Notes under the pieces: model-generated
The model's input: only the letters and a program-made list of their open reading frames with translations
Told to the model about the DNA's origin: nothing
Databases searched by the model: none
NCBI GenBank assembly: GCA_947625435.1
Contig: CANQOI010000002.1
Span: 1,043 to 65,042 of the forward strand
Source: an uncultured Clostridia bacterium
GTDB lineage: Bacteria; Bacillota; Clostridia; UBA1212; UBA1255
DNA length: 64,000 nucleotides
Direction of reading: 5' to 3'
In this document: positions 752 through 2,223 of the stretch, in pieces
Layout: every line of letters begins with the position of its first letter
How positions within the stretch are numbered: the stretch's first letter is position 1
Translations under genes and position numbers: made by a program

Positions 752-828
752 GAAACTGCGCCGATCGCCATGCACCGGATTCGGGACAGGAATGAATGTA
801 AAATGATGACCGACAAAGGAGAGAATTT

Positions 829-1054
829 TATGAATTACGAAAAACAGGCCGCGCCATCTGGCAGCGCGGCCAATTTTGAGGAACAAACGCACAAAACTGT
901 CGACCAAACGGTGCCAGATACCGGTCGCAATGGTGAACACACAGAAGCGGAAATACAGTTTGAACGGGAAATGCGGGAATTTTTGCAGAGCCTTATCAAC
1001 AAAGGCGTCGGGGACTGCGACGATGAAGATGACGAAGGGGAAACGCCGTGTTAG
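829..1054 (+). CDS. small acidic protein (~75 aa; the ORF track extends it to 770); likely partner of the downstream ARH gene
   Basis: RBS aaaggagag lies 6 nt before the ATG at 829; the ATG at 770 has no RBS. Very acidic C-terminus DCDDEDDEGE. Stop overlaps the ARH start (1048). Contains direct-repeat copy A. Confidence 0.45.
936..963 (+). repeat. 28-bp direct-repeat copy A (aacacacagaagcggaaatacagtttga), matched at 10173-10200 with 1 mismatch
   Basis: Base-by-base alignment of the two loci gives 27/28 identity with a constant offset of 9237 bp. Confidence 0.7.
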
Positions 1055-2223
1055 GTGCGCTTATCGGCGATATTGTCGGCTCGGTCTACGAATTTGACAA
1101 TATTAAAACAAAAGATTTTTCTCTGCTCTCGAAAAACAGCCGTTTTACAGACGATTCGGTGATGACACTGGCTGTGGCCGAGGTTTTGCAGCACGGCAAA
1201 ACAGATGACCCGGACGAAATCGTGCGGATTTTTCAAAAATGGGGGCGCGCGTACCCGAACGCCGGCTACGGCGCGTCTTTTGTCCGCTGGGTTTTTTCCG
1301 AAAATCCGCAGCCCTACCACAGCTGCGGCAACGGCGCCGCTATGCGGATCTCGCCCGTAGGATGGTACGCCGACGATGAATCGCAGGTGCGTGACTATGT
1401 CCGCGCCGTCACCTCAGTCACACATGATCATCCGGAGGGGCTCAAAGGCGCGGAGGTTACGGCCATGTGCGTCTATTATGCCCGCCGCGGCCGCTCCAAG
1501 GAATTTATCCGGCAATACGCCTCGCAGTATTACGATTTGTCGTTCGATTACGAGGAACTCCGTCGCAATTATACTCACGGCGCGGAGCTTTGCCAAAACA
1601 CCGTCCCGCAGGCGATCTTCTGCTTTTTGATTTCAAACAGTTTTGAGGACTGCCTGCGCACGACGATCTCGATAGGCGGGGACTGCGACACCACTGCGGC
1701 AATCTCATGCGCCATCGCCGAGGCGTATTATAAGCGCATCGACCGCGACCTGACACTGAGCGCACTCGCCCTTCTGCCGGCCGCAAAGGACGGCTGTGAC
1801 GCAAGAGAGATTCTTTCCCGCTTTGCCGACCGCAAACGGTTTGTGCTCGCGCCGCCCGTCCCGCTGGACGCACGAGCGCTTGAAAAAATCGACCGGACGC
1901 AGATCGTGGCGGTGCAGACGGCACACACCGGCGCGATGGGGCGCCCAGGCGAAACGCATGTCTATTGCGCAGGCGGCGGAGAGCTGTCCGAATATCGTTT
2001 CACACCGACATGTGGGGACGATTCGTCCGCTTTTTCGGAACAGGCGCGGCGGTTGGCGGTAAAATCCCACGGCTTCTGTGAAATTTATATCGGAATGGGA
2101 AACTTTCTGTACTTGCGCAGCGATTTGAAGCCCGCATTTGACGCGGCCGCTTCCGACTTGTCTTTATCGGAACTGTACGTCCGCCACAAGGGAATCTTAT
2201 GGCGGATCCTGGCCGACCGATAG
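1048..2223 (+). CDS. ADP-ribosylglycohydrolase (ARH/DraG) family protein with an extra ~130-aa C-terminal domain of unknown function
   Basis: N-terminal GALIGDIVGSVYEF...FTDDSVMTLAV and a C-terminal GGDCDTTAAISCAIAEAYY motif are typical of the ARH fold (Pfam ADP_ribosyl_GH). GTG start with RBS. Confidence 0.8.
   Translation: MLGALIGDIVGSVYEFDNIKTKDFSLLSKNSRFTDDSVMTLAVAEVLQHGKTDDPDEIVRIFQKWGRAYPNAGYGASFVRWVFSENPQPYHSCGNGAAMRISPVGWYADDESQVRDYVRAVTSVTHDHPEGLKGAEVTAMCVYYARRGRSKEFIRQYASQYYDLSFDYEELRRNYTHGAELCQNTVPQAIFCFLISNSFEDCLRTTISIGGDCDTTAAISCAIAEAYYKRIDRDLTLSALALLPAAKDGCDAREILSRFADRKRFVLAPPVPLDARALEKIDRTQIVAVQTAHTGAMGRPGETHVYCAGGGELSEYRFTPTCGDDSSAFSEQARRLAVKSHGFCEIYIGMGNFLYLRSDLKPAFDAAASDLSLSELYVRHKGILWRILADR

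Follow-up and report, generated by a model that had tools for sequence, protein, structure and literature searches.

What does an ADP-ribosylhydrolase (ARH) with an extra C-terminal domain (CTD) do when its gene lies face to face with a cluster that looks like part of a secretion system? The question is raised by a 64,000-nt stretch of DNA from an uncultured Clostridia bacterium (GenBank assembly GCA_947625435.1, contig CANQOI010000002.1, positions 1,043 to 65,042), which we call the window. The gene starts with GTG at 1048 and ends with TAG at 2223 on the + strand, and it encodes 391 aa. The original prediction saw the protein as an immunity or antitoxin partner of an ADP-ribosyltransferase (ART) toxin, to be looked for in the facing cluster or in a nearby DUF3990 protein. 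We favor a different reading, to which we give a probability of roughly one half: the ARH is native to the chromosome, has no ART of its own, resembles the prophage hydrolase BAH, erases modifications made by exogenous ARTs and carries a new accessory domain, and the cluster is an unrelated, horizontally acquired island. The hydrolase itself is ordinary; the CTD family is the part that deserves follow-up.

For the enzyme core, the peptide strings quoted in the original prediction are all present in the translation of 1048-2223 (+), and the ARH fold named there is borne out by a match of Pfam ADP_ribosyl_GH (PF03747) to residues 1-228 (E=1.5e-38, 133.6 bits vs a cut-off of 26.2). We accept GTG 1048 as the right start because the N-terminus, MLGALIGD..., agrees with the N-termini of homologues. 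The core (1048..1839, +, residues 1-264) belongs to a compact subfamily that resembles BAH, which gives enzymatic immunity to Bxa, a MuF toxin that ADP-ribosylates arginine, and which is inactive as the E15A variant (PMC11699363). All of its motifs are intact: GDxxGSxxE, read here as GDIVGSVYE with the catalytic glutamate at E15; T34-D35-D36; and G-G-D212-x-D214-T215. In the 120 closest ARH homologues, E15, T34-D35-D36 and D212/D214/T215 are kept in 117-120. By sequence, the best match in the PDB was DraG (E=4.9e-14), with ARH3 also found, and the DraG motifs TDD and GGDADTT align to the metal ligands of the window's ARH (TDD and GGDxDTT). AlphaFold models the whole protein with confidence (predicted local distance difference test, pLDDT, 90.8; predicted template modelling score, pTM, 0.91), and Foldseek with this model returned ARH3 (E=2e-10), a Thermus ARH-related protein and MJ1187. 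PHROG 6572 also matches the core, with E=3.6e-56. Since the metal and catalytic residues are present and conserved, the ARH looks catalytically competent, and judged by its sequence it is probably a genuine, active ADP-ribose-removing enzyme. It is not a DraG equivalog (TIGR02662, 70.7 bits vs a cut-off of 337), nor is it a Tri1 equivalog (NCBIfam NF041672, 27.7 bits vs a cut-off of 490).

The rest of the protein is the CTD (1840..2223, +, residues 265-391). The extra part of about 130 aa noticed earlier is confirmed at 127 aa, and its boundary is set by core-only homologues, which stop at approximately residue 262-275. Modeled alone, the CTD gives a confident prediction (pLDDT 89.5) of a separate alpha/beta domain, with elements in the order short alpha, beta-beta-beta, alpha, beta-beta, alpha-alpha. 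Its sequence has no match in Pfam (2025 copy), NCBIfam, PADLOC or PHROGs, and a profile search of the PDB gave 0 matches at E<=10. There was no convincing structural relative in BFVD, with nothing under E=0.03, and tblastn found no CTD in phage and plasmid collections.

We regard the CTD as a separable module because each part of the protein is found without the other. The closest genomic homologue of the ARH (L001, a metagenome-assembled genome, MAG, of an uncultured Clostridia bacterium; 87% identity) has no CTD. A MAG from the same sample series (L026) has a CTD with only the last ~39 residues of an ARH core, and is 71% identical to residues 226-388. The 120 closest homologues show how the C-terminus varies: 65 are core-only, 11 carry the window's CTD (type A), 43 carry another extension (type B) and 1 has some other extension. 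Type B is about 150 aa long and without annotation (P0020, P0022, P0026, P0035 and others). We considered whether it is a divergent form of the CTD, and an hhalign probability of 0.06% says that the two are unrelated. More members of the ARH family carry vWA-like, amidohydrolase-like or other extensions (L018, L019, L034, L067, L082). We also rejected the idea that the CTD is a fused Bsi-like structural immunity protein, with an hhalign probability of <1% and hmmsearch scores near zero; the 107/108-aa open reading frames (ORFs) that follow ARH genes in phages resemble each other and not the CTD.

A profile made from six type A CTDs and run against 1.84 billion representative proteins collected 231 clusters at E<=1e-3. 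Two glycine-rich loops are invariant across this family, GAMGxPG (GAMGRPG in the window) and GxGN (GMGN). We inspected 148 clusters, and the domain stands alone in 99 (~125-155 aa), is N-terminal in 24, C-terminal in 22 and in mid-protein in 3. No Pfam model lies over the CTD in any of the 78 members that we scanned. The domains that occur with it in these 78 are DUF6508 (4), Macro (3), DUF1643 (2), DUF192 (2), DUF1810 and ADP_ribosyl_GH (3, plus the window's cluster), together with single cases of a glycosyltransferase, a beta-propeller and a receiver domain. We found no functional account in the literature on DUF6508, DUF1810 and DUF1643. ARH-CTD fusions occur in at least three divergent ARH lineages (P0005, P0219, P0239), whose cores are 39-67% identical to the window's. 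The two can also be neighbors, as in six metagenome contigs (L095-L100) where a stand-alone family member of 133 aa adjoins a 453-aa ARH gene; in these contigs the 133-aa protein is convergent to a DUF6994 protein and the ARH. A locus search with a narrow CTD alignment gave 3 metagenome loci.

We propose that the CTD is an accessory module that binds either the modified target or a ligand derived from ADP-ribose, because it has been joined independently to other ADP-ribose erasers (Macro and other ARH lineages). A wider version of this idea is possible, with the odds running against it: the CTD might define a previously unrecognised and widespread family of ADP-ribose biology (a reader, target-recognition or chaperone-like module), and ART-less ARH-CTD genes might be acquired orphan defences against ARTs of phages or competitors. 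The CTD would then guide ARH and Macro erasers to substrates that bear ADP-ribose, or sense a ligand derived from it. Some type A ARH-CTD genes adjoin integrases or TnpV (L102, L106, L108). At 1604-6318 of L102 a frameshifted copy of ARH plus CTD lies downstream of three paralogous proteins of 368-421 aa, a setting like that of mobile-element cargo. One of the three paralogues has a cREC_REC (cyclic-phosphate processing receiver) domain (E=1.9e-21), and genes resembling tyrosine recombinases come after.

The ARH core belongs to a large family with more than 7,558 matches, present in species-representative genomes of Clostridia, Bacteroidales, Akkermansia and others, and in phages, whose ARHs are 43-52% identical to the window's core. 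Two of these phages, Bacteroides phage Versailles and Porphyromonas phage005, have ARHs with 43.5-47% identity over residues 1-228 (Versailles 43.5%). Both ARHs lie between small ORFs and are convergent to a large head-region protein beside the portal gene. In Versailles this neighbor has 869 aa and ends in an ADPrib_exo_Tox domain (E=2e-16); in phage005 an R-S-E-like motif in the neighbor was seen by eye only. The link drawn earlier between ARHs and ART toxins is thus right in so far as phage members of the compact family, such as that of Versailles, sit beside ART toxins, but no ART was found beside the ARH of the window. None of the neighbors that we tested in the window has an ART Pfam match, and phmmer with phage ART domains against all ORFs of the window found nothing (a search of limited sensitivity). 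There is also no ART in the related ARH loci L001, L003, L088, L106 and L108, and clustering the neighbors of 80 genomic family members showed no recurrent ART.

It is because no ART is encoded beside the ARH here or in four related lineages that we consider the role of an "orphan" eraser most likely. This reading starts from the observed domain make-up, intact catalytic motifs, family distribution, fusion partners, composition and non-conserved synteny. We picture 830-2223 as a chromosomal, compositionally native two-gene operon whose main product would be an ADP-ribosylhydrolase that depends on metal and belongs to the compact, BAH-like family often met in Clostridia and Bacteroidales of the gut and in the phages of both. 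GC content at third codon positions (GC3) is 0.667 for the ARH core and 0.672 for the CTD, vs 0.59-0.64 for eight housekeeping genes further along and 0.38-0.50 for the facing cluster. The enzyme would strip ADP-ribose from cellular macromolecules, probably from arginine by analogy with BAH. The modifying ARTs would come from outside, as capsid-borne MuF-ART toxins of phages (Bxa type) or as toxins delivered by competitors.

Several things weigh against this reading. The enzymatic activity, substrate and protective role are reached by reasoning from an intact ARH to a protective eraser, and the ligand of the CTD by reasoning from a fusion pattern to a binding module. The fusion counts are samples, drawn from the best 150 of the 231 clusters with 78 scanned against Pfam. 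Most of the gene contexts of stand-alone CTD proteins that we looked at were uninformative, and the glycine-rich loops might just as well belong to an enzyme or to a site for a small molecule. We place the ARH in the BAH family by the gene arrangement of its phage homologues and the shared position of E15. Finally, the window's operon has none of the Nudix/WYL regulators, phosphatases or chaperones that define the ART-less "ARG-centric" systems, which were proposed as a host counter to viral ADP-ribosylation (Iyer et al. 2022, PMC9503650, section 3.8).

The same native composition and chromosomal context would also suit a housekeeping or regulatory eraser, one that acts on soluble ADP-ribose derivatives such as O-acetyl-ADP-ribose or performs a DraG-like reversal, with the CTD as an allosteric sensor of a ligand. 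The best relatives of solved structure, DraG by sequence and ARH3 by fold, are consistent with this. ARH3 has activity both towards ADP-ribose attached to protein and towards O-acetyl-ADP-ribose. In the CTD, the two invariant loops rich in glycine look like sites for small ligands, and NUDIX and Macro genes are neighbors of distant members of the family. However, the ARH scores far below the DraG equivalog cut-off, we saw no DraT-like or sirtuin partner, and the gene context is not conserved and often lies beside mobile-element genes. Close relatives have swapped, lost or replaced the C-terminal module, a pattern that fits conflict genes better than core metabolism. We therefore consider a housekeeping role unlikely.

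Neighborhoods across the 80 genomic family members contain NUDIX (10 loci), vWA-like (9), PLD-like (6), Macro (5) and WYL-like (5) genes. Recurrent operons are found among distant members (L014-L017, L020; L036, L067, L069, L077-L084). Macro, vWA-like and ARH genes occur together in MAGs of Oscillospiraceae/Clostridia, and ARH occurs with NUDIX, sometimes also with a WYL-like gene, in Bacteroidales.

The gene directly upstream of the ARH encodes a small acidic protein (830..1054, +) of 74 aa and pI 4.2, with 19 D+E vs 6 K+R. The original prediction had this protein co-transcribed with the ARH. The pairing is supported, but the start had been placed too early: we take ATG 830 to be the likely start, and not the listed ATG 770, because a strong ribosome-binding site, AAAGGAGAG, stands 7 nt upstream of ATG 830. 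An independent ENA gene call in a near-identical metagenome contig (L087) gives an identical 74-aa gene. The stop of the window's gene (1052-1054) overlaps the GTG start of the ARH (1048-1050) by 7 nt, and the two genes are translationally coupled. On the 5' side, a terminator-like hairpin (668..683, +; GCCCACGACGGTGGGT then a T run) closes the gene of an upstream 64-aa protein and limits the ARH unit. On the 3' side, 24 nt past the ARH stop, there is an intrinsic terminator-like hairpin with an 18-bp stem and then a T run (2247..2286, +). The overlap and the flanking hairpins make a two-gene transcription unit (830-2223) plausible. A weak candidate promoter (723..751, +; TTGTAT-17 nt-TATGAT) was read by eye, falls under the threshold of the promoter scan and serves as a lead only.

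What lies in this upstream position changes among lineages: 74 aa in the window, 226 aa in L001, 171 aa in L088 and a 372-aa family in L101/L102/L108, the genes being unrelated or barely related to one another. The gene in this position usually runs up to the ARH start or overlaps it (7 nt in the window, 4 nt in L088, 0-1 nt in L101/L108). None of these proteins (74, 226, 171, 372 aa) has a match to an ART or to another family in Pfam, PADLOC or PHROGs, and for the 74-aa protein NCBIfam gave no match either. The 74-aa protein is 36-40% identical over ~47-56 aa to the N-terminus of the 226-aa protein of L001, the two having only one short helix in common (FEREMREFLQSLI vs FEKEIRAVLQGLI), and the L088 protein has a motif RFLQSLL, an observation made by eye. 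We take the 74-aa protein to be the form that a variable, translationally coupled partner gene has at this locus. Such coupling could mean that the ARH and the gene before it form a toxin/antidote-like pair, with the 74-aa ORF as the remnant of a decayed partner. It could also mean a pair of regulator and enzyme. A peptide of 74 acidic residues is an unlikely enzyme, however, and several ARH+CTD genes have no coupled upstream gene at all (L003, L106). We give little credence to an upstream pairing of either kind and treat it as a minor rival.

Two features precede this unit in the window. The 64-aa protein (449-643, +) has three DFYG/DWRG-type repeats and no family match. It is conserved at 53-78% identity, 0.2-2.7 kb from the ARH, in the window/L087, L001, L088 and L003, with shifts in orientation. 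We considered it as a general partner of the ARH, but it is absent beside other ARH loci and limited to the four closest lineages, which is more likely to be lineage synteny. At the window's edge, a partial ORF (4-360, +) is the end of a leucine-rich-repeat protein of the LRR_5 type, also found near the ARH in L001 and L087.

We turn to the facing cluster, with which the ARH is convergent as originally described; the cluster lies on the minus strand and ends at 2687. It occupies 2687-9851 (-) in a low-GC island and contains five helical proteins of ~90 aa, a 427-aa protein, a 1,095-aa EssC/EccC-like ATPase and a 366-aa FtsK-gamma protein. One of the ~90-aa proteins has a marginal match to WXG100 (E=0.0027), and the ATPase is far under the equivalog cut-offs (120 bits vs 509). 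We noticed no genes of the EssA/EssB/EsaA type in 2687-9851. The cluster may be a variant module like a type VII secretion system (T7SS), or an ATPase/WXG module of a mobile element.

The case for the ARH as cognate immunity protein or antitoxin for the 427-aa protein of this cluster, or for the DUF3990 protein, begins with the convergent arrangement. ARH immunity proteins are known for ART toxins of the R-S-E clade, including ones delivered by T7SS (PMC3482391). The arrangement also appears to be present in a second sample, where the contigs L087 and L092 overlap at window positions 2193-2238; this shows only that the junction between ARH and island is real in the organism. Other features speak against such a tie, among them the foreign GC3 of the cluster (given above). 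The 460-nt gap between the ARH and the cluster, past the ARH's own terminator, contains a group II intron D1-D4 fragment (2373-2553, +; Rfam RF02001, 46.8 bits vs a gathering score of 32). No ORF for an intron-encoded protein and no D5-D6 match were seen at this fragment, and for this reason we think that it is a remnant that marks a junction of mobile DNA. The ARH has this terminator of its own and lies outside the operon of the cluster. The flanks recovered beside related ARHs, which span ~0.5 to 10 kb, contain no such cluster in L001 (87%), L088-L091 (68%), L106/L007 (59%) or L003 (57%), and the genes downstream of the ARH differ among these lineages. Within these flanks the four lineages thus largely show what the original prediction named as evidence against it, the ARH gene in a setting without the operon, although no metabolic context emerged there.

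The two candidate toxins fit no better. The 427-aa protein (2993-4276, -) is a near-orphan with a coiled-coil-looking N-terminal half, and it has two homologues (100% and 44% identity) among 5.8 billion proteins. It has no Pfam or PDB match and no similarity to the phage ART domain. We looked at it as a possible ART and dropped it: there is no ART signature, and the only matches are weak ones of coiled-coil type (LmuB, tape measure). The DUF3990 gene (10748-11092, -) is real, with E=1.8e-28 and a YHGS motif. It lies 8.5 kb from the ARH, however, and its product is shortened to 114 aa against a profile of 152 positions; the profile matches in two pieces, which suggests an internal deletion. It has a partner of its own: in 10261-11092 (-) an 81-aa ORF and the gene of a DUF3791 protein come after DUF3990, and DUF3990 and DUF3791 are usually paired. 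We conclude that the functional ties proposed for the ARH with the operon and with DUF3990 are both very improbable, and that proximity to a secretion/toxin cluster was an unreliable guide to ARH function here.

In the gut, phages and rival bacteria commonly use ADP-ribosylation as a weapon, and its reversal by bacteria is poorly mapped. The compact ARH family is abundant in gut anaerobes and bears interchangeable C-terminal modules, at least two of them without a match in the domain libraries that we searched. One such module, the CTD, is also found on Macro-domain erasers and free-standing in hundreds of lineages. If it is true that the CTD recognises ADP-ribosylated targets or ligands derived from ADP-ribose, it would be a new handle to find and dissect systems of de-ADP-ribosylation.

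Among known systems, BAH is similar in being a compact ARH with its catalytic glutamate numbered E15, as in the window (PMC11699363). The arrangement of Bxa, BAH and Bsi has been published for a Bacteroides stercoris prophage (PMC11699363), and it is matched by the phage ARHs with 43-47% identity to the core in the window, which are arranged as small ORF, ARH and small ORF, convergent to a MuF/minor-capsid protein. The window's ARH is thus related to ARHs that sit beside MuF-ART toxins, a likeness drawn through these phage homologues and not through the BAH sequence. Unlike them, it has no adjacent MuF-ART toxin or Bsi-like binder and so no cognate ART next to it, and its extra CTD is not homologous to the ORFs in the position of Bsi.

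Tri1, which protects Serratia against the toxin Tre1 of its type VI secretion system, also combines reversal by an ARH with an extra non-catalytic part. The N-terminal extension of Tri1 occludes Tre1. In the window the extra part is instead C-terminal and globular and belongs to a separate family, and there is no Tre1-like gene. DraG is the best sequence match among solved structures, and its binuclear-metal TDD and GGDxDTT motifs align. The window's ARH differs from it in being shorter at the N-terminus, and we saw no DraT or nitrogenase context.

With Imm-ARG, the immunity proteins of polymorphic toxin systems, the window's protein has in common the use of an enzymatically active ARH, there as an immunity protein, and immunity domains are often fused or arrayed (PMC3482391). 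Zhang et al. (2012, PMC3482391) report a strict association of Imm-ARG with ART toxins of the R-S-E type, and we found no R-S-E ART toxin at the window locus. For the adjacent T7SS-like cluster, likewise, we found neither conserved co-occurrence with the ARH in the recovered flanks of related genes nor an ART toxin.

This leaves the ARG-centric systems. They have been described mainly in actinobacteria, planctomycetes and proteobacteria, unlike the window, and the genes that mark them (Nudix/WYL regulator, phosphatase, and the chaperones vWA, SseB and TY-Chap) occur only beside more distant members of the family and not in the window's operon. The likeness is in the design: the window's ARH comes without a coupled ART or sirtuin, its accessory modules vary, and a small accessory domain of alpha/beta type is attached to it. 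Distant members of its family have NUDIX, WYL-like, vWA-like and Macro genes as neighbors, a pattern that fits the ARG-centric systems (PMC9503650).

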